From: Chrysochromulina tobinii
Taxonomy: Eukaryota
Reading direction: 5' to 3'
NCBI GenBank assembly: GCA_001275005.1
Contig: JWZX01003347.1
Coordinates: 1-49,306, forward strand
Length of the DNA stretch: 49,306 nt
The notes under the pieces are model-generated. The model searched no databases. It was not told where the DNA came from and saw nothing but the letters and a program-made list of their open reading frames with translations. The translations under genes were made by a program, and so were the position numbers. Positions 7,855 to 41,388 of the stretch are shown here, piece by piece (the first letter of the stretch is position 1; every line of letters starts with the position of its first letter).

Positions 7855-10800
7855 CTAGACCTTGTATGGTTTAGTCATTGGCTTATTCGTTGGGGCTTGG
7901 ATCCTCGGTGGCATTGGGGGCTTGGCGGCTGGCACCTTGCCCTTGCGCCTCTTGATGAGCACATACAGAGCAGAGAGCACGAGGCAGCCTCCGAGGCCGA
8001 GACCGAGGCCGAGCCCGAGAGGAAGGGCGAGCGAATTGCTAGTGTTGGGAATGTTGTCGTTGGTCGTGAATGTTGGCGCTGAAGTGACGGTGATTCCGAG
8101 GAAGGAGCTGGCGGCCGAAGTCGAGCCAAGTGTGGTGGCGAGAGCGTTCGTGACGCCGGAGGCGGTGGAGCCGACGGGAACCGCTATGACAGCTGTGATG
8201 ATCACGGAGCCGGCAGCGACTTGGACAACGACGAAGGACGGGGGGACCTGATTGGGGGGCATGGGGGTGGTGAGGGAAGGGGGAGGAGAGATGTAGGGGT
8301 TAGAAGTGACGGGCAAGGGGTGACGAGGTAGGGGGGTGGGTAGGGAAGGAGAGGGTAGATGCGGCTCTCACCCCGGCCGCCAGCGCAAACTTGATTTGGA
8401 GATTCGTCATCCTCTGCTCATTGTAGTCAGACACGCTGCCGGCCGCCACAAGCGTCAGCGTGACCGTAGCGGCGCTCCTATTTGTGACTGTGGTGCTGCA
8501 GACCGCATCAGTGTTCCTATTGCATAGACTTGTGACGCCGGACTCCATGCACGTGCTGCATGCCGTGCACGGCGTCAGGCCGGTAGAGCTCCAGGTGGAC
8601 CCCGAGTCGCAGTTGGTGGCGTTGTTCACAATCGTAAACCCGAAGAGGCCCTGTGAAGAGAGGGAAGGCATGAAGAGGGGAGAGAGGGGAGGTGTGAAAG
8701 AGGGTAGGACATGTTCGACGCTTGGAGATATGGGGGGGGGGGCATGCAGGGGGCGTGCTTAGCAGATGCAGGGGGGGTGTAGTGCATGGGAGCTCACGAG
8801 GGAAGATACCGCCCTTGGAGATACATGGGAGATGCACATAGAGATACATGCATGCTGGGAGAAGAAAGGGGGAGAGTGCAGGGGAGCTCTCAAGCGCAGA
8901 CCGCCTTCTCACCTCCTTGAAAGATAGGGCCGACGCGGCGTTTCCTTGAGAGTCGACCCAAGTGCCCGATTCCCATCCCATCACGTACCTGCGGAGAGGG
9001 GCGGGGCGGGAGGTGTGAAGAGAGGTGTGCACCGCTGGTCGAGTGCGGAAGGCAGGGTAATGATGATAGGGAGAAGAGAAGTATGAAGGGCCTTGTGGAC
9101 GGCGCGCCGTTTGGATGGCGCGTGTGGACGGGCGCTATGAAGGGAGATGTGCAGAGAGGCTGCCGCTGCCATGGCGCGGGCGCTCAAGCGGAGACAAACG
9201 TGCGACGTGAAGAGAGGTGTGAAGAGAGGTGCAGAGAGAGCGGTGTGGAGAGGAGCGGAGAGAGGAGTGGAGAGAGGAGTGGAGAGAGGAGTGGAGGGAG
9301 GTGTGGGAGAGAGGCGGGGCGGGAGGCGGAACGGGAGGTGTTGAACAGAGGCGGTAAGATCCGTGTGAATAGAGGGCGGTGTGAAGACGTACGTGGCGGG
9401 TCCCGCGAGCGGAGGCAGTGTGAACACGACCGAATACTCGTTGGAGGGCGCCGGCGTCGCATTCAGCGCCGGGTAAGTCACAAAGCTGGCCGTGGGGGCG
9501 AACATGTTAGCCAGGCCCCTGGTGGCGTTGTTCAGGACGATGATCTTCATGTCTGCCTTCGGGGTGAGTCGGGAGCTCGATTTAAACGTCGCCGTCACGA
9601 CGACTGAATTGGCCGTCAGAGCGGGTGTGAGGCGAACAAGGGTCGGCCCTTCGGAGCAGCCTGTCGTGTAGCCGAGAGCCCTCGAAGGAGGCTGAGCACT
9701 AGTTGTCCTGGCCGCGAGCTTGCGCCGACGGCCGTTCACAGTTCGGAAGCTCGGGCTCGTCACACTTGCAGCATCGGGAGCGTCCGAATCCTCGAGCTTG
9801 CGGCGTCCAGCGGAGGGTGCGGAGGGAGGGTCAACATTGAACCTGGCTTGATTTCCTGCGCCATCGATGATGGCGCCATCATCGATCGCGATCGTGTAGA
9901 CGGTGTTCGGCTTCCATTTGCGGGGCTCCGAGTCCTCGTCGGTGGGATCTGAGAGGAGGCGGACCTCGACACGAGATTCGTCCTCGTACACGATGACCTG
10001 TTTCGGATCTGGCATCGCGAGATTGTGGAACCATCATGGGGTGGGGGGGAGGGTGGGTGAGAGGGTGTGTGCGGGATATTCTCCGAGGGAGGTGGGCGGG
10101 GAACGAGGGAGATGCAGGGTGGATGGCGCACCATTCATCGCGACGGTGAATGTGTCGACCGTAGTGCCGTTGTACTTGCCAGTAAATGAGATGTTCTTGC
10201 CTGGGACTGCTTCAATGTACTCCTGTGATAGATATGGGGGAGAAATGGGGGAGATTCTGTGTGAGATTGAGATCGCATGGGACCCGTCGAGATGCAGGCG
10301 AGGTGTGATGTGAGGGGGATTGCATGCCTCCTCGTTGAAGCAGAGGACGAGCGGCTGCGTCTCGTCCACGTCCGTGGCTCCCCATTTGGCGTCCGCCTCG
10401 GGGCACTCTTGCAGAGTCGGGGGAGTGGTGTCCGGAATCGTGTTGAAGTAGTAGTACTCAGATTCAGTGGTCATGGCGGTCTCGGCCATGTCGTAGATGG
10501 CGTCCGCGGGAATCTTGAGTCGGAATTGGCCACCCGCATAGAGCGGGCAGTTCTCGTTTGGCGAGATCAGGAGCTGCGCGCCGTCCACGTCGATATCGGG
10601 GTTTGTGATCTTCTCGCCATCCTCGTCAGTCGCGATGAGGGGGAGGGCGCAGTACGGTTCCGTATCTGAGTAGGATTCCCAGCACGATCCCCATCCCTCG
10701 TCGCAGAGCTCGTCAATGCTGATCACCTTGTCGGAGTCGTCTGGGATACGGATCGCGCGGGAAAAGGTCGCCTTGATCGTCGAAGCTGTCGTGAAGGCTG

Positions 10801-13800
10801 GGGCTGCGTGGTCGATGGACTTGTTCGCACTCTCGTACCCGGCACCCCATGTCTCGTCTGGCGTCACAGCGGGAGGCGTGAAGCCAGTCAAGGTGAGCGC
10901 ACCCGAGAAATCTTCCTGCAACGCTCGGCGACCTGAGACAGTGAAGGTCGACGAGAATCCCGCGACATTGTTGCCTAGGCCGTCGTGAAAGTAGCCGGCG
11001 GGCACCGTGACGGTGTATGTGCCGGCTGAGAAGGTTACGTTTGAGAAGGCAAAGTTGGCGGTGGAAGCGCCGTCCTCGAAGAGGTTTAGCGTGATGGTGG
11101 TGGTCGGGTTGCCGCCGGCTGGCGCGACGGTCGAAGGGGAGCTTGGTGGGAAGCTCGCTGGGCAGCTGCCAGCTGAGCAGGCCTTGACGGCGCGCGCCGC
11201 GACCTGGGCAGGTACGAACGGGGGCGAGGGAGAAGTGAATGAGAGGTATGTGTGTGAGATGCGTGTGAGATGAGGGGAGGTGCGGGGAGATGCGCACCTG
11301 GCCAGTCTGGAAGGCGCCGTGGACAGTCCCTCTGAATAACGCCGACGTGTGCTCGCCTGCAAAGAAGAGTCTCCCTCCGACATTGCGACCAAAGGCGTCC
11401 GTGATGGTGTTCTTCGACGTACCTGCCATGATAGAAGACTCGGGGCAACTCAGGGGAAGGTCGGAGAACGGCACAGCCAACGGCAGCAGCGATGGGGGCG
11501 GCAGCGATGGGTTGGTCGACGCACCGACTGCGACATACGTGTACGCGCCCTTCGCAAGTGGATTGGCGCGCCAAGCCGAGCGAACGATCTGAGGCGCATC
11601 CGTCGGGACCGTGACAGAAGTCGGGAAGATCTTGACCAGATTCGCTCGGATCTGCGGGGGAGATGCCGGGGAGATGCGCGGGAGATCGTGAGCAGGTTCG
11701 TCCGGAACTACGCCCAGGCACTTGATGGGTAAGAGGTGTGCTGGAGAAGCGAGGGAGAACGCACCTGCGCCCAGACCTCGGCGTCGCTCATCCCTTCGGC
11801 CGTGTCGGCAGCCGCACCCAGTGCAAACGTCATGAGCACCGGCTTGGTCGACAGCTCATGCACGTTGAGGAAGTAGGTGAAGAGGCCGCGGTTGGTCCCC
11901 TGGGCAAGGCCATAATAGTGCGTGCCTGACGGCCACCAGTTGGTTGGAAACAAGAGTGCGATCTTGACGACGTTGCCGAAACCAAGCTGAGAGATGCCAT
12001 TTGCCGTAGCTGTCGGGAGTGCCGGGCTGAATGTGACTCTGGAGCTCGCGTCGGTGCTCTTGAGCACCCCGAGGGGGATCGTGATGATCACGTAATCAGC
12101 GTTGTACGTGCTGCTGTCCGCAGTCGTCAGCACAACTCCCGTGCTGTTGTACGTGACGGACGTGACGCGCTTGTTGTACGTGACCGAGATGGGCTGTCGG
12201 CTGGCGGACAGCACGGCGGTCACCTGCAGGGTGCTCGAGCCGTCATTTACCCGGACCGCGCCGCTCTGCAGCGCCTCGTACATCTGCTTGTACCCTTGTG
12301 CCCACACGAGCTCAGCGCCGTTAAATTTGGAATCATCATTGTAGTTCCAGGCTGACAGGTTAGTGACCGGCCCGGCGGTGTTGAACTCAGTGCTGACGGC
12401 GAGGTGGTACTGGAACAGCTCCGAATCTCGAGTCTGCCCCGAGTTCGAAAGGCCGGCGAGCGCCTGCCAAAGCGAAATGTCCGTCGTCGCCGAATTCTCC
12501 TGTGCTTGTGAGAGCAGGCTTTTGTACGGGTTGTACTGATCGTCGCTGGGTTCCGAGCAGGCCGAGTTCTGGTTTTCGGTGCAGAGGCGAAGTTCGGCCA
12601 AATTGTTTCTCGTCCGGACAAGTCCGGCACCTTCAGCCAGGCCCAGGGCCGTCGCGATCTTGGTGATCGGATGCGACTCATTGCTCCCGTGGATCCAGCT
12701 GGCGCCCATGTCCGTCGGCGCTCCCAGGGCGCCGGCGGTGTCCCAGGCCGTTCCCGCCTCGGCAGCATTCAGCGTCCATGTACGGCCACCAATGCGAGTC
12801 CCAGCTTCGAGCACCGTCAGCTCCAGGTGTCCTCCGTTTGCAGCAGTATCCCACGTGTCGATCAGAGTACGCGCCGCGGCGAGACCCGATGTGCCTGCAC
12901 CGACGACGACTACTTTGACAGTTGTGGCGACTGGCGTGGCAGACCGTGGCGACGGCGACGGCGACGGCGGTAGGGAGAGCGGCGGCAAGTGTGACGGCGA
13001 TGGTGCCTCACCTGAGCCCATGTCGCCGAGTGCGTCAGGTGGTGCCAGCGAGGGCGGGGACGACGAGGGCGACGGCGACGGCGGTTGGGAGAGCGGCGGC
13101 AAGTGTGACGGCGATGGTGCCTCACCTGAGCCCATGTCACCGAGTGCGTCAGGTGGTGCCAGCGAGGGCGGGGACGACGAGGGCGACGGCGACGGCGGTT
13201 GGGAGAGCGCCGGCGAAGGCGAAGCCAGCAGAGGCGATGGTGGGGAGGGCGTGCCCGTGTTGGTCGTGCTGGTATTGCGACTGCTCAGGCGGCTGGCGGT
13301 GCCGTGGTGGCCGTAGATGAGCAGGTTCCAGCTGCGGAGCAGCGAGTTGACGCTCGGACCGTTTGCGAGCCGCCGATCGCGGATCGCGAGCGTCCACGTG
13401 CCCACCGGGCTTTCGCCCCAGCTGCGCACGCTCGTCATCTTCCAATTGAAGCGTGGCAGGTAGAGCGAGGGCTGCCCGTTCGTGCCCGTCCAGTTCGCCG
13501 CAAGGCAGTCGTTATAGTCGCATTCGCAAGACTGAGGGTTGTCGCAAATGCCATCATTACTCGACGTGCACGTGTCGTCCTCGGCCGAGCAGCCCACGAC
13601 CGGCGGGTTGGACGTCTCGGGCCGCGGGCCGGGGGTCAGGACGGAGTGCGTGCCCGAGGGCGAGGTGAGCTCGAGCTGCAAGTCGCCGCGCGACGAGTGG
13701 TTGAGGTTGACGAAGATTTCGATCCACTCGATCGCCCACGCCTGGCTCTGTGCGCCGACCGTGACACTGGTCGACAGCGTCGAGCCATCGTGCGGGACGG

Positions 13801-16800
13801 TGAGCTGCTGCGACGAGTTCGCAATAATGCGCCGCTCAATCCCCCAGTTGGTCCACGAGAGCGCGGCGGCCACGGCCGCGCTGGCGTCGACCATGCCGAA
13901 GCCGTACTTGATGTTGTGGATGAAGCCGGCCGCGTTCGTGGTCCAGAGGGAGCTAGTGGGGTCGTTTCGGCTCGTCGTCGCCGCGAGGATCCCCGTGCAC
14001 GTCGCGCCAGCCGAGCAGCGGATTGGCTTGGAGCATGAGCGCGACCACGCCCGAGACGACGGGGCATGCATACGAAGTTCCCTGCCCCTGCTCGGCACAG
14101 CCGCCGCCTGTTGCCGCGACGTGCCAGCTGTTGCTGTGCTGAGTTGCGTCGCCGCCCGGCGCGGAGATGAAGAGCGACGAGCCCGTCACCGAGTAATACG
14201 AGTGCAAGCCGAGCTTGTCGGTGGCGCCGACGGTGATTGTGAAGCGCGAGTGCAAGTACTGCTCCATGTTGACGTCCTCACCTTGGGCGTTCTCGTTGCC
14301 TGACGACATGACGTACACGATGCCACGCCCGCTCCGCCCCTCGAGGACGCCACGCTGCAGGGTCCGTTTGGTCGCCCAGGGCAGGTGCGTGTACGCGCAT
14401 GTCATCCAGAGGTGCGTCCACGAGGCGCACTCGCCGTCCGCGTCATAGTTGGACACGTCCTGGCAGTAGGTCGAGATGACTGCTTCGCACGTGCTCAGCG
14501 GCGACGTCCAGCTGGCCCCAGGGCACTCGGAAGCGCTGCACGGGCTGGTGCCCGAGGCGGCCGTGGCCGCGAAGGGGCACCCCTGCAGCTGGCGCTGCCG
14601 GAGCTTGCGCCGCCCGGAGCTAGCGAGGGCTGTGCACGGGTCGATCCCCCACGAGTTGGATGAAATGTGGTTTCGGGCCATGTTGCCGATTAACATATTC
14701 GTGACGGTGTTGCCGTTCATTCCGCACTTGGACAGTGTCGCACCATACGCGACGCCGCGAGAGCACTGGTCGTTGCCGGCCGCGAGCGCGATCGCAGCCA
14801 CGGTAGTACCGTGGCTGCCGGTGGTGTGCGTCGGGCACGACCCCAACGCATCATACTTGCCCGAAAAATCCGGGTGCGTCTCATCGGGCCCATCGTCGAC
14901 AATGTTGATCGTCACGCCAGCACCAGTGTAGCCTGCTGCCCAGGCGGGCTGCAGGTTGATCAGAGTGTGCGCCCAGGCGTTTGTCTCGTAGTAAGGGTCG
15001 GTGACGTTCGACGCCACGCAGCCGCTGCTGTACGTCCAAACATCGTGCGGGCAGAGGACACGATCTCCAGGCAACATCGTGCTGGTCTCCATCGGACCAG
15101 TCGCACACAGCGCGCCCGCGGCGCACCACGCGTTGGCGGATTGGTCGGCCATGCAGCTGCTGCACGTGTAGAATCCGGATCTGAAGGTCAGCTGCCGTCT
15201 GTGAAGGTCGAAGAAGTTGGCGGCGGAAGCGCCGTCCTCGAAGAGTCTACGAGGATTCGACGTGATGTTGGTCGAGGTGCCGCTGGCTGCCGCGACGGTG
15301 GCGACTGGCGTGGCGGCAGTCCGCTGGAAGACAGGGGCCGAGAATCCGAACGAGATGGCAGAGATCGTCGCGGGCACGTTGGCGGTTGCAGCCGGCTGGG
15401 TTGTGGCGACGGTGGGCACGGGACGGGCCGCGGTGACGGTGAACTTACCGGACGGCGCCCAAAAGGCGCAGCCGGTGGTAGTCTGACCAGGGACCTTGGC
15501 CATGTCGGCGACGACACGAATCTGGGCCACGGTTGAGCCGACCAGACTCGTCGGGAGCACGACGTATGCCGAGCCTTCTCCCTTGTTGTTGAGCTTGACG
15601 AGGTGCTGGGATCGGACGAGGTCCGTCCAAGCGAGTCCTCCGTTGGTCGTCACTTCGAAGGTGAACTTGGCGCCCTTGACATCGTCCAGCCCGGGGCTCG
15701 CCGCCGGGTTTTTATAGCCATCGAGCTTAAAGGTGACGAGGGTGATCCCCGCGGGCACGGACGCGCCAGCGGCGGGCTGCTCGACGAGCATGGGCCCCAA
15801 GTCGACGACATTGACCTTGGTGATCGCGGCGTGCCAACTTCCATACGTGAGGTCTTGGCTGGCATTCGTGGGCTTTGCCGCCATGTAGTTGTCACGGACG
15901 GTCATGGCGAAGTGGATGTCTCGGGCCGTGAAGGGGAGCCTCTCCCCTGGCCAGAACGCCGACCCTCCGGGGACGACGATGGCCGCCGTCATGTTCGGGA
16001 AATTGCGCAGGAAGCCATGCGGCGAGGGGGAGACGGACCGAAAGAGGGGGCCCTTCCTGAAACCGATCGACATCGACTCTGCAAACTCCGCCGGGTCGAC
16101 TTGCTCCTAACTTGCTCCCAGGTGTAGGCGAGCACATCGGCCGCGTTCGGGTCGGTGCCCGAGCCTTGCAGGAAGAAGGGAGTGCTCTTAGGGATGGCAC
16201 ACGTCGCGGGCACGTTGGCGGTGGGCCGTTGGTTCGCGATCACGGTCCTGGTGCCGCACTGCTGCAGGTTCATGTCGTCGTTCAGTCGAACGTTGGCCTG
16301 GAAGTACTTCTCCTGGAACTCGTTCAAGTTGTAGACGTGGAAGTAGGGATCCGAGCGCATCTGAATGTTGTCGTCATCGCAGATCCCAGCATAGGTGACG
16401 AGCGTAGAGCCTGCGCCAATCTCCATCGCGGACGCGGCCATGAAATTGGAAGGCGAGCAGCTCGACCCTTTGCCGGACCATGTGTGAGACGTCCCGAACT
16501 GATGAGAGAACTCATGTGCGACGAAATCCACATCGTAACCATCGCCGACGGGGACTTTGCCGGCGGTGGCGCCGTTTGCCTTCGCGCTGAAGATTGGTTT
16601 CTCACCAGACCAGAACCCCGTCACCGGATCCTTGGTCCAGTGGGGAGACTGCCTGCATGGGTACATGCCGCCCATTCCTGGGAGATGCGTGGGAGATGCG
16701 TGGGAAGGTGTGGGAAGGTGCGGGGGCATGCGATGGGAGGCGCTCGAGGAGTTGGGGGGGAGATGGGGGTGAGATGTGGGGTAGGCCGCACCTGAGTCCA

Positions 16801-18250
16801 TGCCCACATGGAACATATGGCCGAGGTCGTAATCGGTCCGATTGACTCCCGTGGGGGTTGCGGTCTTCTTTGACTCAGGAGATGAGGGGTCGCCGATGAA
16901 CTCAATGAACCACTCGCCGTCGTTCATAAAGGCCTCGTTATTTCCGTTGGGCAGCCCGACTTGGTTGCTGGCTGACCATTTGGGGTAGTGAAGCAGCATA
17001 CCTTGCTTATCGATCATCACCATGTTGAGCCCCATCTCGCGACGCCAGATGCCGTTCGAGCGCGTGCAGGTGTTGACGATCGTTGCGAGCGCCGCCTCCT
17101 TGCACTTGGTCGCATCGCACGGATCAGTGTTGCCCTCGGTGTTCTCCTTGCACGGCGGGCAGCCACTATGGCCTGGCCAGCGGTACGGGATCGTGCACAT
17201 ACCGTTGTTACATACCTGAGGCAGGGTGGGAGTGTGAGGGTGGGGGCGAGCGTGAGGGCGAGCGTAAGGGCAAGGGGTGAGGATGAGTGAGGGTGGACCG
17301 AACGAAAGCGGCCGCGGCGGGTAGCGTCACGCCCCGGGGGAGGCGACCGGCGGTGCGCGCGCGCTGAGCAGCCGACGTGAGCGTCAAGGAGGGTGTTGAA
17401 TGTGAGGCTGAGATGGCAGCCAGACTGGAGCATGGCGCACCGAGGGGGTCACCATGCCGAAGACGTACTCAAAGCTGACCGCGACAGCCATCCGGAGCGT
17501 GCGAATGGTCTGATTCCCCTCAGGTGGGGGGTGTGTAACGGTCCAGATCGGATTGAAGGGCGCCGCCTGAAGCCGCCGCCCGTCGTGAACATCTCCCTCC
17601 GTTGTGAACGTCTCTGCGAGCCGGCGCCCATCGTGCACGTCTTCAGAGATCTTGGTGAACGTGCGCACCCCCGGCTCGCCCCGCTTGTTGGAGCTGTGGT
17701 AGACGGTGTACAAGTCCGTACGGCTGTGGGTGTGAGGGTCGATGTGGCACCGCCCCAGGTTCGGCTCGCCCTCGGCGCCCCCAATCCAAATTTGGCCGCG
17801 CACGCCTTGGATGGAGACGGTCAGGTCAGCGGTGTGGGCCGACCGATCGGCAGGAGGGGAGACCTCGACTCCGTGATAGGAGCGGATCCTGGGGAACTCG
17901 GCCTCGAGGCCGGCCGGCATGACGGGCGACTTGGTGAGTTTGAACGTGGCGGCACCACCGCCCAGGCAAAGAGGAAGGGAGATCTCCGAGCCCTCGACGA
18001 TCCCGAGCGCCGCTCCATCAAACACGAAGTTCTCATTGTCCTCGAGGTGCCGCCGCTTCAGCTCGGGGTGACTCAGGTGGAGCGAAACGAGCCGCACCGT
18101 GTCCGAGGGTGCCCGACGAACATACGCGTCGCCCACCTCGTTGCTCAAGTGACGCCCATGGAGCGGCGCATCGGTCACATCGGTCCAGTGGATACTCGGC
18201 CGAAGCTCTGGCAGTGCAAACGCCGCTGCGACGAGAAGAGCGAAGATCAT
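7855..18250 (-). CDS. ~2,900-aa secreted type-I membrane multi-enzyme protein: signal peptide, reprolysin-like M12B Zn-metalloprotease, kexin/furin-like S8 protease + P domain, FAD amine oxidase, Big_5/SbsA-like Ig domains, Cys-rich module, TM helix
   Basis: Manually spliced exons: 18250-17453, 17215-16792, 16677-11765 (with an 11-nt duplication at ~16100-16119 and an extra G at 13991-13994), 11651-11525, 11422-11298, 11203-10328, 10222-10132, 10008-9393, 8988-8913, 8650-8372, 8247-7855. All junction phases match and the total is 8706 nt after removing those 12 nt. N-terminus MIFALLVAAAFA; C-terminal TM LALPLGLGLGLGLGGCLVLSALYVLI followed by KRRK. Confidence 0.75.
11190..12920 (-). other. Flavin-containing amine oxidase (polyamine oxidase-like) domain of the polyprotein
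   Basis: VVVVGAGTSGLAAAR (GxGxxG), LEAGTRIGGR, DMGASWIHG, ADYVIITIPLGVLK, LGFGNVVKIALLF, W..NPLAKGAYTY, RLFFAGEHT...GTVHGAFQTG, spanning three introns. Confidence 0.92.
12956..13210 (-). repeat. 114-nt coding tandem repeat (Pro/Ser-rich linker, 2+ copies)
   Basis: PPSPSPSSSPPSLAPPDALGDMGSGEAPSPSHLPPLS duplicated nearly identically between the P domain and the oxidase. Confidence 0.9.
13310..13830 (-). other. Proprotein-convertase P domain of the polyprotein
   Basis: IEWIEIFVNLNHSSRGDLQLELTSPSGTHSVL ... WKMTSVRSWGESPVGTWTLAIRD ... SWNLLIYG, with a Cys-rich insert. Confidence 0.9.
13860..15010 (-). other. Subtilisin/kexin-like S8 serine protease domain of the polyprotein
   Basis: Catalytic Asp (IVDDG), His (HGTTVA), oxyanion Asn (SSGNE) and Ser (GTSYACPVVSG), plus SNSWG, EGRSGRG, WRDVHG and YGFGMVDA, typical of kexin/furin proprotein convertases. 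Confidence 0.92.
15850..17510 (-). other. Reprolysin-like (M12B, bacterial type) zinc metallopeptidase domain of the polyprotein
   Basis: YDLGHMF; YDVDFVAHEFSHQFGTSHT (HExxHxxGxxH); MEIGAGSTLVTYAGIC..NIQ..SDPYFH; IPKSTPFFLQGSGTD..YTWEQ; GPLFRS; MTVRDN. The prodomain lies in exon 18250-17453. Confidence 0.9.
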
Positions 18251-18867: not shown

Positions 18868-21800
18868 ATGGCCGATGCTGTCGCGGAGTATGAGATTCGG
18901 AGGCGTGCTCCCCGCATGGCCTGGAACGACGAGACGCTCAAGCTCAAGGCGGCGTCCAAGTCGGCGCGGGAAGTGGCGGCTCTCAAGGACGTCGACGGTG
19001 CCAAGCAACTACATGTACAGCTACAGCAGGTGCTACAGAGGGACCCGTTCGCCGCACTTGGTGAGCTCTCGCAGCGCCTCTTCGGAACGTTTGGCAGTCC
19101 CGAGACGCCACCGACGCCAATTCCCAATATCGAAGTCGGTGGCAGAGGAGGAGGAGGCGTCGGCGCTGGCGCGTGGCGGCCAGTGACTCACCCCAAAGGC
19201 ACACGTGAGCCCGCTCGTGAGTTCTTAGCTTGGCTACGAGCGCACAATCTCGAGCTCAACGAGATCCTCTCCGACGACTGTGGCGTTCATGCTCGCGTGG
19301 TGCCTCGCGGCGAAACCACGCACCACCCTGCTGTCGACGCCCGAAACGACGCCCGAAACGACGCCCGAAACGACGCCCGAAACGACGCCTGCGCTACCAT
19401 TGGTGACCACAAACTCCCTCGGCCCGCGGCATCCATCTCGTCACCGGCGGCATCGATCTCGTCCCCAACCACGGGGCTCGCTCCCCATCGGCTGACCCTC
19501 CCGAGACTGCCCTCTTCAGGGCCGTCGACGAGCTGCTCCATTAAGTCTCCGCCCGCCGCAGGAGAGCCCAACACGACGCTCCACCCCGGCACGCCGTCAC
19601 CGCCGCCCAGCCAGTGGTCGGGAGACAAGCCGAATGGCACGCCGCCATCACCGCCCAGCCAGTGGTCGGGAGACAAGCCGAATGGCACGCCGCCGTCACC
19701 GCCCAGCCAGTGGTCGGTCCAGAGACCAAATGGGCATTCAAATGGGCCGAGAAAGGGCGCGAGCGCACACACGGACGCGGGCCGCTCGCCTCAGGCGTCC
19801 CGCCGAGCGAACGGCTCCGAGGGGCGCATGCAAGTGCCCAGCACGGCGCCCGCAGGCTCCGAGCGCCCGCGACGCATGCAAGTGCCCAGCACGGCGCCCG
19901 AAGGCTCAGAGCGCATGCAACGCCTCGACTTCGAGACGCTCGAGCTCTTAGAGGCACGCCAGGGAGGCACGCTCGCGCTCGACTCGCGCCGAAATCCGAC
20001 CAGCTCGTCGACGGAGCGCCTGCCGTCGATGCAGCTCAGCAGCACTCCGATAGAGCGGGGGCTCCCGCTCGATGCACCTGATGAGGGACGCAATCAGATG
20101 CAATCAGAGGTCATCAGATGCAATCAGTGGTCATCAGAGCGGGGGCTCCTCGGGCAGCTCCTCGGTGCCTCGCGGCTCACGCCCGCCGCGCACTACGTCG
20201 AGGCGGCCGCGGCGATACGTGGCACAGTGGACGGCGAGCGTGCGCGGATGAGCGCCGTTTGGTCACAACTCGACCTTCGTACGCTCGCCGCGCCTCGCCG
20301 CGCATACAGCGCGCGCTCTCCTCCCCATAGTGCTCTCTCCTCCCCTCCGTGCTCGCTCCCCCGAGCGCGCGTGCCTTACCCCATCCCCCGGCGGTCGCCT
20401 GATGAGGGATACAATCCGAGCTCATCATCATATCTCATCAGTGGCAATCAGGCCTCCTTGCCCCCGGCGGTCGCGCGACTGACCGCCGATTGCTTGACTG
20501 TGCGCTGCGCCGTGCCGGCAGGCGTGGGGCTCGCCATCCTCGAGCGCCAGCTCAAGCCCAAGGATCTCGTCCAGCTCTGGGACAAGAAGGGCAAGGGCGG
20601 GGTGAGCAAGGTCGAATTTCGTCAAGGCCTCATCCACAGCCTGGGGATCAGCGCGGAGATGAGGGCGGCCGACATTCTCTTTGACCAGCTCGACGATGAC
20701 GGCGGCGGCACTCTCGACTTGGGAGAGTTGGACTTGGCGCTGCGAAAGGTACTTGACGAGGCGGCGACGCGAGAGGAGAGCGAGGCGCATGCAAGTGCTC
20801 ACCACACGGCACCTCGTGTCCGCAGGTACGCGACAAGGCGGCGAAGCTACGGGCGAGCGAGGCGCATGCAAGTGCTCACCACGGCGCCTCGTGTCCGCAG
20901 GTACGCGACAAGGCGGCGAAGCTACGGGCGAGCGAGGCGCATGCAAGTGCTCACCACGGCGCCTCGTGTCCGCAGGTACGCGACAAGGCGGCGAAGCTAC
21001 GGGCGAGCGAGGCGCATCTCGGCGCGGTGGAGGCGGCGTGGATGGCGCAATTGACGAAGCTCGAGACGATTGCCAGCGCGACCAAGAGTGCGGTGCGGGC
21101 TCTAGAGGTCGCAGCCGCGTTGGGTGTGACGGCCGCTTCCATGGAAGATGCAGTCGCGGCGTTCACACAGGGGCCATCCGAGGGCGAGAAGGAGAGAGAA
21201 GGGGCGGCGAAGGTCGGAGCGACCATGCGGCCGATGAGCGAGCGCGCGCTGTGGAGAGACGCAGCTTCACCAGCAGAAGCGGCCGCGACCGCGGCGGCCG
21301 CCTTGACGCTGGCCCTGCAGTTGCAGCAATCTCTTGCAGAGGAGGAGGCGGAGCGCGCACGGTCCTCGATCCTCGCGCGCGAGGAGGCCGAGAGGCGGCG
21401 GCGCGAGCTCGAGGTGCTCGAGGCCTTCGACCGCACGCCCGTGCTGCCGTCGCTCGAGCTGCAAGGCCGGCTCGACGCGCTCGATATGGAAGTGCACGAG
21501 CTCAGCCGCGCGCCGCCGATCGCGCCGAGCTCCAACGCCGATACGAAAGTCGGGCAGGCGCTGGCCCAGAAGAATCTCATGACGCCAAAGGAAGTGGCCA
21601 AGGCTTGGGACTCCAAGGGGCGGGGGGAAGTCGGCCGGCTCGACTTCCGACTGGGGATTAAGGCGCTTGGGGTCAAACTCGACGAGAAGGAGGTGGACAG
21701 GCTGTTTGGCAGCCTCGACGCGGACGGTACCGGCGCCCTCGACGTGGCTGAATTGCACGAAGCCCTCCGGGTGCTGCGCGAGGCTGCTATGGAGGCTGAG

Positions 21801-35887: not shown

Positions 35888-36945
35888 ATTCACGGTCGGA
35901 TCATGGCGGGCTGGAAGAAAGAGCTGAGCGCCGGCCGGCCGGGCCGCCAAGACTGTTCTGACTACTTGATGACCCGAACTTAATCCCCAGGATGCGACAC
36001 GAAGGGCATGCGGTTAACATGCGGTATGGAGCTGAGCTGCAGAGTGCAGTTGCTGCATGCTGGACCTGGAGTGAGAACGAGTCTACAGACTTAATCCAAT
36101 CGCAATCCCTCGTGCCGCCCCTCCACTTCCTGGTACTGCTTGTTTTCCCCTTACCGGCACTTGGTGCCCGGATCTTGGATTTAAGTTTCAATTTCGAATC
36201 AGAACCCCATCTTACAATTTTTGATTGGTAAAGATAGTGATTTGTATTGGTGGTTTCAGCGTGCGGAGCGCTGCTACGGGCGCACTCGGCACACGGCAGG
36301 GAGCCGCCCCCCCCAATACATGTAAGGTTAATTAGGGCTCAGCGCCCAATGTCAGCGCCGGGGAACTAGCGCACCAACTGGCTGTTATCGGCTGTGAACG
36401 AAAGGCGGCGCATCTGAGGAATCTTATATGAGAGCGCGCCCTCGTTCACGCGAGAATCATGGAAGCCGACGAGGACGACGGCATCCCGCGATCCCGCACG
36501 AGGCCACCCCGCTCGCACGTACGCTCAAGAACGCTCACTCAAAAAAAAGCACACTTAAAGTACACACCAACCACCCCAGCAGCCACCAGCAAACATCCAA
36601 GTATTACTGTACGGAACCGGAAGTAGTCTTAGCACAGGACAGTAGCCAGAACGACAGAGATGATCTCCGAAATTAACGATCTCGGATAATATCTCGGCGA
36701 GTTCAGGTGAAGCGCCGCGGATGCGCGAGACGCATCCTAGGATCGGTTGGGCCCAATGCCGTGTATGTCCCTATAGCATAGAAGATGCTAACCGTGTACC
36801 TATGCACAGGACACAGTTCACAGAGCTTGAGCGCTCCAAACGAACAAACCATATGCCCGGCGCCACGCGTCCGTTTCACTTGTGCGAGTGACCTTTTTGA
36901 GGACTCACAAAAGGCCCAACCGACGCGTACACAGCGAGGTTGCCA

Positions 36946-39900
36946 ATGGCAGCACCCGCGCCGGCGGAGGAGGCCCTACGAGCCGACGAGGTGGATGAGG
37001 TGGCGCCGGGCGCTGCCGCCGGAGAGCCTGAGCCAGAGCTACCGGAGCTGCGTTCGGTGGGCCCCGTGGATTCCTCTTCGGAATCTGATCAAGTGGACTG
37101 TACAAATGACGAGCCAGCGATAGCAGCAGCACCAGCGGAGCTCACGGCAGCCACTTCCACGGCCGATGCTGCTCAAATAGAAATGCCCAAAACGCCTGCC
37201 GGGGCCGTGATGGAGGAGGTGATCGCTGCGAGTGTCCTGGCCGTTACCGGTGAGGCGGAGGAGGAGGCAAGCAAGGCCGCCGAGACCAAGGAGAATGCGC
37301 CGCGGCAGGCCGGCGCCGGCGTGCTGGTCGCCTTCGAGCCTCCGCGGTCGCAGCTGCCGCCGCCGGACCAAACTTCAAGCGTGGCCGGCATCATCGGGCA
37401 GCTCAAGATGGCGCTCGCTATGAATTTGCCTCGGATCATCGACACGTTCCGCGAGATTGACGAGGACCAGTCGGGCAAGATCAACAAGCGCGGGTTCCGG
37501 CTCGCGCTGCAGAAGCTTGGCATTGTCGCCCACAAGTCTACGTGCGACCTCACGTTCGACTCGCTCGACAACGATCGCTCCGGCGCGATCGAATACGAAG
37601 AGCTCAAAACTCACCTGCGGCTGTTGCCGGACTTGACCGATGAGCCAGCGATAGCAGCAGCACCAGCAGAGCTCACGGCAGCCACTTCCACGGCCGATGC
37701 TGTTGAAAGTGAAAGGCCCAAAACGCCTGCCGAGGCCGTGGTGGAGGGGGTGATCGCTGCGAGTGTCATGGCCGTTACCGCTGAAAGGCCCAAAACGCCT
37801 GCGGAGGTTGTGATGGAGGGGGTGATCACTGCGAGTGTCCTGGCCGTTACCGGTGAGGCGCTGCCGGACTCTGCCGATGAGCCAGCGATAGCAGCATCAG
37901 CAGCAGAGTTCACGGCGGTCACCTCTATGAATGACGAGCAAGCGGTAGTAGCAGCAGGGGCAACAGAAAACGTGGTGCTCCTCAAAGCTGTTCTGCAGGA
38001 GGACGAAGACGGCAAGGAGAAGCTCGGTCAACGGATCCACCGCGAGGTCGCCTTTGTCCAAGATTGGAATGAGAATCAACTTGCAGAGGCAGGCTTCACC
38101 CCAGAGGAGCAGCTTCATATCGACAACATAGAGCCACCTAACCCTACGCGTCGACAACTCTTTGGATTCAACTCGCAGGCCTTGACGACGCCTCAACGAA
38201 AGTACCTCGCTTCGTCGAGCACCGAAGATGATGCGGAATACATGAGAGGAGAAGTCAAGAGTGCGGCCGATATGAACAAGGCCGTTACACCACCGCGCCG
38301 GAGAAGCTGGCTACGCTGGCTTTGGCCGGGGCGTTCGAAAGCGGGCAGAGTCGGCGACGCTGGATCACAGGTTGATGCACAGGCCGGAACTCAGGAAGTC
38401 GAGAATGAGCCGGAAGAGGAGCTGGCCGATGGGTGGCAGGCGGAGATGCTCGACGACGGGCGGATCTTTTATTGGAACGCCAAGACTGAGGAGACTTCAT
38501 GGGTGCGCCCTTCCAAGCCCAAGCAACCCGAGCCGCCCGAGCCGCCCAAGCTCGTCGGCAGAATCGGTAGGAAACTTGCACTGCTGCATAGGCTCAAGAA
38601 TAACGCCAACGCTGGCGCCTCCCGAATCAAGGCGAAGCTCGAACGTGACTGGTATAAGCTCAGGAGCATCACGCTACTGGACGTTGGACGTTGGGCAAGC
38701 TACCTGTTCACGACCTTAAGCCATCCCTTCCGTTCGATGTTCTTGGCGTGTTCGGTCGGCTTAATGGGCTTTTTGTGTGTGCCTGTACTGCTGCTGCTGC
38801 TGCCCATTCGACGCTTTCGTCCCACGTGGTGGTACTCTATTACCAATCCACTCTTTGCTCAGCTGTGGGCGACCTTCATCGTCGCATTCGAAGTCTTTGG
38901 TGGACTCCGCATCTCCTTCTTTGGGGAAGAGCCCATGCCTGGCGAGAAGCTCGTCATCTTTGCAAATCACCACTCCTCTTGTGATTGGCTGGTACTCCTT
39001 GGTCTCGCAGCCCGGTTTCGCGCGTTGGAAGGCACGCGATTTGTTGCTGAGACACCGACATCCAACATCCCCTTTTTCAAAACCATGCTGTGGCTGCAGC
39101 AGACCGGGACGTCGTCGGACTTCATTGCGACGTCGCGCGACCTCGGGGAGCACTCTCGTTCGCTGTGGCTGTGCCTCTTCCCGGAGAACAACAAGGTGTT
39201 GCCCGATGCAAGTCCAAGCACAGCTCGCACATGGACGTGGCGCCGTCGCGGCTCATCACAGCGGGTGCAGCCACAAGACGAGAGTCCCAAGCTGCCTGGG
39301 TCGTCCGAATCGGTGCCTCCGCCGACATTGTCGGTAAAGTGCCCACCAGGCTTTGGGGCGGGACACACCGTGACGGTGGAGGATCCGAGCACCGGGAAGG
39401 AGTGGCAGGTGACGATGCCAGAGGGGATCGCGCCCGGCCAGACCTCTGAGTGGATAATACCCCAAGCACCCAAACCGCCCCCCAAGAAAAGATTTTGGGA
39501 CTCGTGGACGAACGAAGACGCTGCAGCAGCTGCCGACAGACTCTTTAAAGAGCTCGACGCCGACGGGAGTGGCAAAATCTCTCGCTCAGAGCTTGAGTTG
39601 TGTATGCGGGAGATCTATGGCAAGCCTCTGGAGGCTGAGGTTCTCGACAAAATGATTGCGGATTTTGACGTGGATGGCGATGGTGAGATTGACCTCATGG
39701 AGTTCCGGATAATGATGCGTGCCTGCGAGAAAGAAGCAGAGGCTGCCAAAGAGGCTATGACGAAGCTCAAAGAGCGCGCGCATGCGGCCGACCTGGTGGC
39801 AAAGCTGCGGCGCGTCTTACTGAAAAAGGGGTTGTTTCGCGTGTTCGAGACCTTTCGCAAGATTGATGTGGACGGTTCCGGCGAAATCGAAGTCGATGAA

Positions 39901-41388
39901 TTCAGTGATGCGATGCGCTTGTTGGGGCTACGTTTGTCCGACGAGGACGTCGACCTGCTCTTTCGCCAAATCGACGCCGACGGGAGTGGCACAATCGAGT
40001 ACAGAGAGCTGAATAAGCTCTTGCGGCATGGCGAGGACGCACCGAAGGGTGAGATTTCGGTTGCCTCGCCCTCGCCCAAGCGCATAGAGACCTCGCCCAA
40101 GCGCACCAGTACCTTGACGTACCAGCATCTATCGCAGCCTCGTGCCAAGATTCTCCAAGACGTGCTGCAGGGAGCAAGGCCGCCATTGTTGCACGCTTTC
40201 GACATGACGCTTGCATACTATGACAGTGACACCGGAAAGCCAGCCTCTCTCTGGGATGGCCTCTTTGGTACCGTTTCCGTCGATGTGCTCATGCGGCGCA
40301 TCCGGCTGCCAAAGGGCCCCGTGGTGCCAAATAGCGTGGGCACGCTCAAGGTGACGATCTTGCATGCGACCAACCTGCTGTCGGCCGACTCGAACGGCAA
40401 GTCGGACCCGTACGTTGTCGTGAAAGCGGGCGGGATGGCCCAGAGGACGAAGCACGTCCTCGAGACGCTCGACCCAGTGTGGAATAAGACCATCGAGTTC
40501 CAGGGCAAGTTGGAGACGTTCCTCGCGCGGCCGCTGCATCTCAAGCTCTTCGACATGGACGTCTTTTCAGCCGACGACCCGCTCGGTGAGGTCAAGGTGT
40601 CGCTCGACTACCTGATTCTGGGTGGCCAGCAGGACTTTGTCGAGCGCGTCCAACCTGTCAACGGGACCTTGGATCCGAGCCAGGGCACGCTCAAGGTGAC
40701 GATTAAGCATGCGAACGGGCTGATGGCGGCCGACTCGAACGGTTTATCAGATCCGTACGTGGCAGTTCACGCAGGCGGGATCGCCAAGAAGTCGAAGGTC
40801 ATTCCTAAGACGCTCGACCCGGTGTGGAATGTGACCTGGGAGCTGCAGGGTAAGCTGGAGGTGTTCCTCGCGGAGCCGATGCACATCGAAATCTTCGACA
40901 AGGACCCCTTCATCTCAGACAAATCACTCAAGCTCTACGACGACCCGCTCGGCGATGTCAGGATCCCGCTCGACGATATCATCGCGCGGGGCGGCAAACG
41001 GGAGATGACCGAACCGCTGGGGGTTCCAGAAGGGGCACCAGAAGAGATGAAAGAAGGACAGGGCACGGTCAGCTTCGAGGTCGAGTGGATCTCGGGCCAG
41101 GGCACTGTTTACTTTTCGGCCGAATGGCTCCCTTCCGAGGGCCTTTCCCACAGCTCCAAGCAAAATGACATAGCCGTCTGGCTCGAGGATATCTGGGCCG
41201 AGAAGGATAAGGCCCTACACGCGTGGAAACGTGACCCTGCGTGCTGGTTTGAACGAGCCGGCTTTCAGCACGCTTGGCTGCGCCTATGCCCGATGCTTGT
41301 TGGCATCATCTGCTATTTGACACCATACCTTGTGCTGGCCGCTGCGATTGTGACCGGAATCATGATTGGGACCGGGGTAGGGACGTGA
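36946..41388 (+). CDS. Mosaic EF-hand / WW / lysophospholipid acyltransferase (PlsC, LCLAT/AGPAT-like) / C2-domain membrane protein
   Basis: Single 1480-aa ORF. EF-hands (IDEDQSGKIN, LDNDRSGAIEYEEL, four more at ~39540-40025); WW (LADGW..DGRIFYWN..TSWVRP); TM helices; NHHSSCD (HxxxxD) and LFPE; two C2 domains (ADSNGKSDPYV, ADSNGLSDPYV); Acyltransf_C-like WLEDIWAEKD; C-terminal TM. Confidence 0.88.
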   Translation: MAAPAPAEEALRADEVDEVAPGAAAGEPEPELPELRSVGPVDSSSESDQVDCTNDEPAIAAAPAELTAATSTADAAQIEMPKTPAGAVMEEVIAASVLAVTGEAEEEASKAAETKENAPRQAGAGVLVAFEPPRSQLPPPDQTSSVAGIIGQLKMALAMNLPRIIDTFREIDEDQSGKINKRGFRLALQKLGIVAHKSTCDLTFDSLDNDRSGAIEYEELKTHLRLLPDLTDEPAIAAAPAELTAATSTADAVESERPKTPAEAVVEGVIAASVMAVTAERPKTPAEVVMEGVITASVLAVTGEALPDSADEPAIAASAAEFTAVTSMNDEQAVVAAGATENVVLLKAVLQEDEDGKEKLGQRIHREVAFVQDWNENQLAEAGFTPEEQLHIDNIEPPNPTRRQLFGFNSQALTTPQRKYLASSSTEDDAEYMRGEVKSAADMNKAVTPPRRRSWLRWLWPGRSKAGRVGDAGSQVDAQAGTQEVENEPEEELADGWQAEMLDDGRIFYWNAKTEETSWVRPSKPKQPEPPEPPKLVGRIGRKLALLHRLKNNANAGASRIKAKLERDWYKLRSITLLDVGRWASYLFTTLSHPFRSMFLACSVGLMGFLCVPVLLLLLPIRRFRPTWWYSITNPLFAQLWATFIVAFEVFGGLRISFFGEEPMPGEKLVIFANHHSSCDWLVLLGLAARFRALEGTRFVAETPTSNIPFFKTMLWLQQTGTSSDFIATSRDLGEHSRSLWLCLFPENNKVLPDASPSTARTWTWRRRGSSQRVQPQDESPKLPGSSESVPPPTLSVKCPPGFGAGHTVTVEDPSTGKEWQVTMPEGIAPGQTSEWIIPQAPKPPPKKRFWDSWTNEDAAAAADRLFKELDADGSGKISRSELELCMREIYGKPLEAEVLDKMIADFDVDGDGEIDLMEFRIMMRACEKEAEAAKEAMTKLKERAHAADLVAKLRRVLLKKGLFRVFETFRKIDVDGSGEIEVDEFSDAMRLLGLRLSDEDVDLLFRQIDADGSGTIEYRELNKLLRHGEDAPKGEISVASPSPKRIETSPKRTSTLTYQHLSQPRAKILQDVLQGARPPLLHAFDMTLAYYDSDTGKPASLWDGLFGTVSVDVLMRRIRLPKGPVVPNSVGTLKVTILHATNLLSADSNGKSDPYVVVKAGGMAQRTKHVLETLDPVWNKTIEFQGKLETFLARPLHLKLFDMDVFSADDPLGEVKVSLDYLILGGQQDFVERVQPVNGTLDPSQGTLKVTIKHANGLMAADSNGLSDPYVAVHAGGIAKKSKVIPKTLDPVWNVTWELQGKLEVFLAEPMHIEIFDKDPFISDKSLKLYDDPLGDVRIPLDDIIARGGKREMTEPLGVPEGAPEEMKEGQGTVSFEVEWISGQGTVYFSAEWLPSEGLSHSSKQNDIAVWLEDIWAEKDKALHAWKRDPACWFERAGFQHAWLRLCPMLVGIICYLTPYLVLAAAIVTGIMIGTGVGT

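Follow-up and report, generated by a model that had tools for sequence, protein, structure and literature searches.

The window analysed here, the whole stretch of 49,306 nucleotides (nt) from contig JWZX01003347.1 of Chrysochromulina tobinii (assembly GCA_001275005.1), carries on its minus strand a multi-domain gene in which two diverged copies of the middle part of a split Ig-like domain lie on either side of a furin/kexin-like S8 protease module and a flavin amine oxidase. The G+C content of the window ranges from 55% to 72%, its long open reading frames (ORFs) code for eukaryotic-type domains (EF-hand, C2, ankyrin and PARP), and the named homologs, at 77–93% identity, come from C. tobinii and C. 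parva; judged by its sequence, it is nuclear DNA of a Chrysochromulina-like haptophyte. The gene holding the repeated segment is transcribed and spliced, as seen in metatranscriptome RNA contigs: nineteen RNA runs contain 69–85% of the sampled words of 10900–15500, and 7/7 RNA-derived introns have GT..AG ends on the minus strand. From its start codon, the gene codes in order for an M12B reprolysin-like protease, an Ig-like sequence without a Pfam assignment, Peptidase_S8, a P (proprotein convertase) domain, a Pro/Ser linker, the flavin amine oxidase and Big_5 domains, and an intron-less relative (locus L009, see below) gives the C-terminus of the family as a Cys-rich region, a transmembrane (TM) segment and a short tail.

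The split Ig-like domain and the modules between its halves

The first-pass annotation of the window had placed an S8-P-oxidase cassette between direct repeats of about 85 nt that begin at 11052 and 15214. A repeat search and blastn both recover this arrangement, and the peptides quoted for it are found in the minus-strand frames. The repeat search pairs 11052–11083 with 15214–15245 (32 nt with one mismatch, family D12) and 11095–11131 with 15263–15299 (37 nt at 84%, family D10), while blastn of 10900–11400 against the whole window aligns 11052–11131 with 15214–15299 (77.5% over 89 columns, 12 of them gap columns, E 8e-14), the sole comparable match in 49 kb. However, the size given for the duplication was too small: alignment with six cassette-less relatives extends the repeat further on the 3′ side of the gene, to about 120–134 nt, the unit measuring 122 nt in these relatives, 134 nt in the upstream copy (b_up) and 119 nt in the downstream copy (b_down). 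The two copies are identical at 93 of 134 alignment columns (69% over all columns), and each of the six indel blocks separating them from the unit of the cassette-less form is a multiple of three. In the minus-strand frames, the first part of the domain (segment a) lies upstream of b_up and its last part (segment c) downstream of b_down, with the Pfam matches for S8, P and amine oxidase all falling between the two copies. The upstream copy joins the N-terminal region of S8 directly and has gained two RR motifs, PRRL and HRRQL.

The expectation that the domain would be intact without the cassette could be examined on natural sequence, as the unbroken stretch of a cassette-less relative (L006:10643–11032) matches Big_5 (PF13205) with 38.5 bits against a cut-off of 23.6 and nearly over its full length (profile positions 4–104 of 105). 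The two halves in the window (15120–15464 and 10919–11182) give no Pfam match to Big_5 even at E ≤ 10, only the next domain being matched, and neither copy of the repeat belongs to a complete Ig domain of its own, by Pfam and by alignment with the cassette-less form. Of 36 distant relatives recovered from 1.84 billion representatives, 25 match the domain unbroken, which indicates that the continuous a-b-c domain is the ancestral state. Two AlphaFold models of low confidence (pLDDT 58.9 and 61.1), with six to eight strands, agree on strands 55–59 and 94–99; in these predictions the edge between a and b falls at a loop end, where strand 55–59 starts, and the edge between b and c falls inside strand 94–99. 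Foldseek returned no match at E ≤ 0.001, its best, weak ones being the Ig-like domains of TssM and the S-layer protein SbsC (E 1e-3 to 3e-3).

The enzymatic modules are recognizable by profile and motif alike. The M12B reprolysin-like metalloprotease combines a profile match with the HExxHxxGxxH motif. In the closely related locus L001, an open frame matches Peptidase_S8 (109 bits) and then P_proprotein (53 bits); the DDG, HGT, SGN and GTS motifs, which supply the catalytic Asp and His, the oxyanion Asn and the catalytic Ser, align with those of furin (7lcu), and the S8-P region aligns with kexin as well (E 2e-37). No convertase prodomain is found among the Pfam matches of the 1465-amino-acid frame, and b_up occupies its expected place. 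The oxidase matches Amino_oxidase (140.7 bits) along with NAD_binding_8, displays an N-terminal dinucleotide-binding motif (GAGTSG following VVVV), and has LSD1 (5.6e-23) and maize polyamine oxidase (2.1e-16) as its closest solved chains, with spermine oxidase also matched. Three spliced introns in the oxidase part rule out a retrocopy. In three relatives (L010, P0017 and P0021) the oxidase contains an extra Cys-rich insert of about 60 residues flanked by proline runs (L010:1062–1247, corresponding to a point between 12217 and 12200 in the window, which is without it); on sequence grounds this is another module insertion in the same gene family.

The linkers between these modules have features of their own. 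The 114-nt repeat of the Pro/Ser linker varies in copy number, with one more copy in L003 (whose ORF is 38 amino acids longer) and three full units in another relative, P0101. RRxL-type motifs are enriched in the linkers: the model of the window's form of the gene has six against 0.44 expected, a count reached in 0 of 2000 shuffles, and a transcript of the cassette-less form has four RRxL/RRxxL motifs against 0.13 expected. Motifs of the form G-R-R-(K/A)-L recur between domains (10916–10933 and the exon 9393–10008). The RR motifs of the linkers hint at possible dibasic cleavage sites for the furin-like convertases of the family itself.

Coordinates of the features of the minus-strand gene, in order from its 5′ to its 3′ end after the two rows for the gene model
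Feature	Position in window	Strand	Basis
Modelled gene part	8989..18250	-	Start codon at 18250; seven RNA-supported introns
Seven introns	17216-17440, 16678-16791, 11652-11764, 11423-11524, 11204-11297, 10009-10131, 8989-9392	-	RNA contigs
M12B zinc-binding motif HExxHxxGxxH	16484..16516	-	Pfam Reprolysin_4, E 4e-11, 43.4 bits
11-nt tandem duplication	16097..16118	-	Creates TAG; shifts the M12B frame against everything downstream
Segment a of the split Big_5 domain (first strands and loop ending ...TPVA)	15300..15416	-	Translation; type A alignment
Nested 17-nt repeat, copy 1 (tail of segment a)	15298..15314	-	Longest exact shared word
b_up, upstream copy of the middle segment (134 nt)	15166..15299	-	Repeat search, blastn, alignment
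Furin/kexin-like S8 catalytic domain	13998..14924	-	Pfam Peptidase_S8, E 3.9e-30; furin 7lcu, E 6e-44
Extra base in G run	13995	-	Puts S8 and P in different frames; window only
P (proprotein convertase) domain, approximate limits	13300..13729	-	Pfam P_proprotein, E 7.5e-15; furin alignment
Pro/Ser-rich linker, 114-nt tandem repeat	12950..13214	-	2.3 copies
Nested 17-nt repeat, copy 2	12924..12940	-	Leader PRSATPVAT immediately ahead of the oxidase; shared with the oxidase-only form
Flavin amine oxidase, polyamine-oxidase/LSD1-like	11171..12922	-	Four exons; Pfam Amino_oxidase, E 1.2e-40 and 1.4e-09 for two frames
13-residue linker, last helix of the oxidase to b_down	11132..11170	-	Translation
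b_down, downstream copy of the middle segment (119 nt)	11013..11131	-	Repeat search, blastn, alignment
Segment c of the split Big_5 domain (last two strands)	10937..11012	-	Translation; type A alignment
Next complete Big_5 domain	10439..10810	-	Pfam, E 8.3e-09, residues 214-337 of ORF 10034-11449
Gene 3′ end with TM segment	~8650-7950	-	Located from its similarity with L009, an intron-less type A contig

Three architectures in the gene family

Metagenome contigs were scanned once with the part of the gene upstream of the repeat, and the ten loci obtained (L001–L010), sorted by blastn against the window, display three architectures. Type A, with six loci (L004–L009), follows the window to 15191 and resumes at 11131; it has no cassette and a single copy of the segment, a 114-nt stretch of which matches both window copies in each of the six. 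Its layout is a signal peptide, the M12B protease, Ig-like domains and a TM segment, with the domain in question as one piece, a-b-c. Type B, represented by L010, follows the window to 15298, the exact 5′ edge of the repeat, and resumes at 12951: the oxidase is inserted between a and b and is followed by the same linker and b, without b_up, S8 or P. Type C, the form of the window, is found in L001, L002 and L003 (97–100% alike the window) and has the order a, a-tail, b_up, S8, P, Pro/Ser linker, a second a-tail, oxidase, linker, b_down, c. The same three classes recur among the ORFs called on other contigs, where P0012–14 and P0016 are further cassette-less relatives and P0017, P0018 and P0021 have the oxidase-only form; free-standing S8-P-TM genes are also present. 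Between type B copies the proteins diverge by about 20%, and the type C copies, at 97–100%, form one tight cluster. Relatives lacking the cassette, for which the first-pass annotation had suggested a search, thus exist in number (L004–L009, P0012–14 and P0016), each with one copy of the segment in one intact domain.

The companion search for free-standing genes combining S8 and oxidase had a mixed outcome: S8-P-TM genes do exist, but an S8-P-oxidase form is found only in P0101, a single mosaic contig. Among 63 long S8-P or oxidase relatives, just one unites S8, P and oxidase, and this is the cluster of the L001 ORF itself. P0101, from one ENA contig, starts with a signal peptide of its own, followed by S8, P, the linker, the leader also present in the window and the oxidase. 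Three paralog types are mixed in this contig, which was seen once and may be a chimeric assembly. With its N-terminal 130 residues as query nothing beyond its own cluster was recovered, so that the free-standing S8-oxidase form goes back to one contig. RNA contigs from 5/5 runs extend along the last oxidase exon as far as 11170, where they pass for 74–79 letters into a different, acidic tail, indicating that there is an expressed oxidase paralog without the following Ig segment. Near the 3′ end of the gene, L003 exceeds the window by about 1.4 kb (L003:11071–12499, between 8062 and 8499 of the window) and contains the stretch 8062–8499 repeated.

A second, smaller repeat is nested within the cassette. 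Its exact 17-nt word has only two occurrences in the window (15314 and 12940), which flank just b_up-S8-P. The oxidase leader containing the second is identical between the window and L010 along a stretch exceeding 45 nt, and the junction running from oxidase through linker to b is common to the window, L010, P0121 (a spliced product) and P0122. The nested repeat, together with an oxidase-to-Ig junction that recurs in the oxidase-only form, calls for a minimum of two events, which makes the single protease and oxidase module proposed by the first-pass annotation unlikely; its view that the locus records domain shuffling is correct in kind. From the sequences we infer that the oxidase was inserted first and that S8-P arrived later, bringing with it a second copy of the a-tail and b.

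An allelic empty site was considered and rejected as a reading of type A, as this form has the upstream flank of the window (at 99.8–100%) and not its downstream flank, the reverse being true of type C; with one window flank each, synteny cannot be claimed for either.

Reading frame, expression and assembly

The spliced model of the window consists of three ORF pieces in different frames, owing to the two lesions of the table. The 11-nt duplication is present in 4/4 type C contigs (the window and L001–L003) and in none of the four type A loci aligned there (L004–L007), so that type C has a frame-breaking lesion in all its copies, as a pseudogene would. In none of the copies seen does the frame from the M12B start stay intact: the M12B ORF truncated at 403 amino acids is recorded on 15 contigs (9+3+2+1), and the S8-P-oxidase cluster has no ORF of more than 1503 amino acids among the 15 of 18 members listed. 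The extra G is the less serious of the two lesions. A tblastn search with an S8-P paralog jumps frame at 13993, where the window has one G more; this base is absent in L001 and in the RNA contigs of 4/4 runs, which also differ from the window at 14086, 14087 and 14092, the window being paralog-like at these positions. It is probably an assembly consensus error from mixed paralog reads. The earlier description of the insertion as in frame consequently stands for the junctions and fails for the gene, given the 11-nt duplication in 4/4 type C contigs and the extra base of the window at 13995.

Downstream of the 11-nt break, L001 has after splicing an open frame of 2250 codons, in which no signal peptide follows the break. 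This frame, along with indels that are all multiples of three, implies that the chimera was seemingly read for some time before a recent lesion. The ratio of nonsynonymous to synonymous substitution rates (dN/dS) is 0.74–0.80 for S8 (L001 versus L003) and 1.0–1.15 for the oxidase (type C versus type B), values that are blurred by gene conversion and GC-biased codons and on which we do not rely as a test of decay. Type C is a young, lineage-specific chimera that is likely decaying.

The first-pass annotation had raised the prospect that the repeats are misassembled. This is not so, as independent assemblies and RNA contigs cover both junctions. On the 5′ side, three RNA contigs cross from the a-tail and b_up into S8: one in X1 spans 14193–15319 (1127 nt with 0 differences), one in X2 spans 14744–15319 and one in X5 spans 14977–15319, all ending at 15319, where the paralogs diverge, and overlapping RNA contigs with type C-specific variants continue through S8 and P into the linker. 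On the 3′ side, 230-nt RNA contigs in X2 and X3 cover 10993–11211 (b_down, linker and last oxidase exon) and appear to reach 19 letters into the preceding oxidase exon across a spliced intron, which is below the 31-letter threshold for a bridge. A splice form that skips the cassette was not seen, in that the RNA contigs of four runs, which drop rare forms, contain no joint from b_up to b_down.

On a larger scale, the window is a perfect mosaic: it matches type A (L004/L006) at 99.8–100% from 26012 to about 17750, and is identical to type C (L001) from 17938 down, except for the patch at 13995–14092. In L001 and L003 the upstream flank is different and exon 1 shows 16 differences from the window, and both versions of this exon occur in RNA (0 differences in X1, 11 in X2). 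Other contigs of the family also change partners within conserved stretches: L002 (L002:1571–3301) turns unrelated at window position 14861, and P0105 joins a type C S8 to the P-TM tail of a paralog near 13995. These two and P0101 are either chimeric assemblies or real mosaic paralogs.

A short repeated motif (repeat families D4 and D5) is common to four introns, 16678–16791, 11652–11764, 11204–11297 and 8989–9392, which sit in the M12B, oxidase and 3′ parts of the gene; blastn pairs 11248–11295 with 16685–16732 at E 3e-06. In the flank upstream of the gene, 20747–21017 holds a 75-nt tandem repeat (3.6 copies, 94% matches) with staggered blastn matches to L006, suggesting that its copy number may differ. 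On the plus strand, 36901–41388 is an ORF of 1495 codons matching WW, acyltransferase, several EF-hand and two C2 domains, and the remainder of the window consists of ordinary eukaryotic genes (ankyrin/SAM, PARP-like and EF-hand).

Origin and possible roles of the chimera

We propose, with a probability of about 0.6, that type C arose through at least two recombination steps between paralogs, which brought S8-P and a polyamine-oxidase-like flavoenzyme to lie between diverged copies of the middle third of a Big_5 domain, and that the resulting gene is likely now disabled by the 11-base duplication. In such a history, the oxidase would first have entered the loop preceding the third strand of the Big_5 domain. 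A type A-like 5′ part, extending through b and broken inside the sixth strand, would then have been joined to an S8-P gene, which in turn would have been joined to a type B-like 3′ part. These joins would have been non-homologous or guided by microhomology and would have occurred inside exons; the ten loci contain no S8-P paralog DNA with which microhomology at the 5′ junction could be compared. The two repeats would hence be leftovers of two paralogous Ig domains rather than a fresh target-site duplication, and both copies may have been in frame for some time before the 11-base duplication arose. If translated, the gene would place metalloprotease, convertase and amine oxidase together at the cell surface as a membrane-anchored array.

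Several observations weigh against this account. The diagnostic residues of the two copies fit no simple join of a type A 5′ part to a type B 3′ part: b_up has AAASG and GASAANF like the copy of L010, b_down has GASTANF like type A, and both are only 81–87% identical to types A and B over ungapped columns, as against 94% between A and B. The order and number of events are accordingly probable rather than shown. Should P0101 be real, it would be a free-standing S8-oxidase donor, and the last step would reduce to a single join at a shared Tyr-Thr. Upstream of about 17750, where the window agrees with type A and not with the other type C contigs, its sequence may stem from a chimeric assembly or a true recombination. 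As for the disabled state, it is deduced from a duplication placed from genomic contigs, and it must be set against a type C gene that is transcribed and spliced and whose long open frame and in-frame indels speak of past constraint.

The closest competing history is the one originally suggested, in which a ready-made S8-P-oxidase module entered an M12B-Ig-TM gene in one step and duplicated about 120 nt of target. We regard it as unlikely. Cassette-less relatives do have a single copy of the segment at what would be the empty site, and P0101, with S8, P, linker and oxidase in one frame, could be the donor; but only one, mosaic contig holds P0101, the 3′ junction is found as well in the oxidase-only form, whose copies vary more than those of type C, a 17-nt remnant of the Ig domain lies within the middle of the supposed module, and the copies share only 93 of 134 columns. 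A transposon target-site duplication was likewise rejected, the repeats being 119–134 nt long with 93/134 columns identical and the junctions passing directly from Ig coding to enzyme coding sequence. The opposite polarity, with type C as the old form from which type A arose by deletion between the b copies and type B by deletion between the 17-nt copies, is very unlikely. It would draw on the ease of deletion between direct repeats, on the fact that the 17-nt repeat flanks exactly the stretch absent in type B, and on the TPTP before the type B leader, which could be a remnant of the Pro/Ser linker. Yet it has to contend with the unbroken a-b-c domain of 25/36 distant proteins, with the diversity of types A and B against the one tight cluster of type C, and with six aligned type A copies of b that show no differences among themselves and, without gaps, 94% identity to that of type B, rather than being hybrids of b_up and b_down.

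That the architecture is an artefact of collapsed or misjoined paralogs is highly improbable, even with the mosaics P0101 and P0105, the L002 contig that turns unrelated at 14861, and the paralog-mixed appearance of the 5′ part of the window and of the patch at 13995–14092. The same architecture occurs in L001, L003 and further recorded contigs, and RNA contigs specific to type C chain from 15319 to the linker, with others running from b_down into the last oxidase exon; the junctions are not misassembled. Another possibility is that type C still functions, its downstream part being translated by starting internally, by recoding or from alleles that lack the duplication, to yield an array of protease and oxidase at the surface with b_up as a cleavable dibasic linker. 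We consider this quite unlikely. The 2250-codon frame of L001 after splicing, the in-frame state of 6/6 indels, the intact S8 catalytic motifs, the transcription and splicing of the gene, and the gain of PRRL and HRRQL in b_up within a family whose linkers are enriched in RRxL-type motifs (6 versus 0.44 expected) would all be in its favor. They are countered by the lack of a signal peptide after the break in the open frame, the duplication in 4/4 type C contigs, the absence of any longer recorded ORF among the 15 of 18 members listed, and dN/dS values near 1 for S8 and oxidase.

Our preferred history of joins between paralogs resembles several known processes in part. In domain insertion, which gives rise to 'nested' domains, one domain lies within a loop of another; the oxidase-only form is of this kind, with a whole flavoenzyme between the early strands and the rest of Big_5 at a predicted loop end, whereas in type C there is a further insert, the 5′ junction of which interrupts a predicted strand, and the middle part of the host domain is present in a redundant second copy. 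Exon shuffling yields extracellular mosaic proteins, and the family likewise comprises multi-domain secreted or surface proteins built from protease, Ig-like and Cys-rich modules; however, all three junctions lie inside exons in open frame and not at introns, and the inserted DNA keeps introns of its own. As in transposon insertion or gene capture, the inserted DNA is flanked by direct repeats, but these code for the host domain, are 69% identical, and have no non-coding or terminal element sequence between the junctions.

At the level of the modules, the catalytic and P domains align with those of furin/kexin convertases and retain the Asp, His, Asn and Ser motifs, but here they have no prodomain by Pfam and are fused behind an Ig-like sequence and ahead of an oxidase, the paralogs having a TM tail instead. 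Similarly, the oxidase shares with polyamine oxidase and LSD1 the Pfam Amino_oxidase match and the closest solved chains, but differs in its setting within an Ig-like domain of a protease family anchored in the membrane. The signal peptide and TM anchor of the family point to the cell surface, where an array of protease and oxidase would plausibly serve in nitrogen scavenging. A membrane-bound amine oxidase activity releasing ammonium extracellularly has been reported for Prymnesium and, where discussed in that source, is ascribed to a copper enzyme, unlike the flavin oxidase here (PMC4478897). A literature search at record level returned no paper linking Chrysochromulina to such a fusion. In the boldest form of these ideas, which we think rather improbable, one algal population would hold a living domain-insertion series, with half a domain remodelled into a self-cleavable dibasic linker, a self-processing three-enzyme surface polyprotein feeding on organic nitrogen, and an 11-base lesion that is recent or polymorphic.

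The origins of multi-domain proteins are usually inferred from end states. Here, the empty, intermediate and most complex states co-occur at 80–97% identity in one haptophyte lineage, and with exon-internal junctions marked by leftover duplicated sequence the mechanism becomes readable as joins between paralogs and not as exon shuffling or transposition. For those working with this gene family, it is also a warning that its assemblies mix paralogs. The series further provides a natural experiment on the tolerance of an Ig-like domain for an entire enzyme in one of its loops, and it illustrates the fragility of such inventions, with a copy that already has a frame-breaking duplication.

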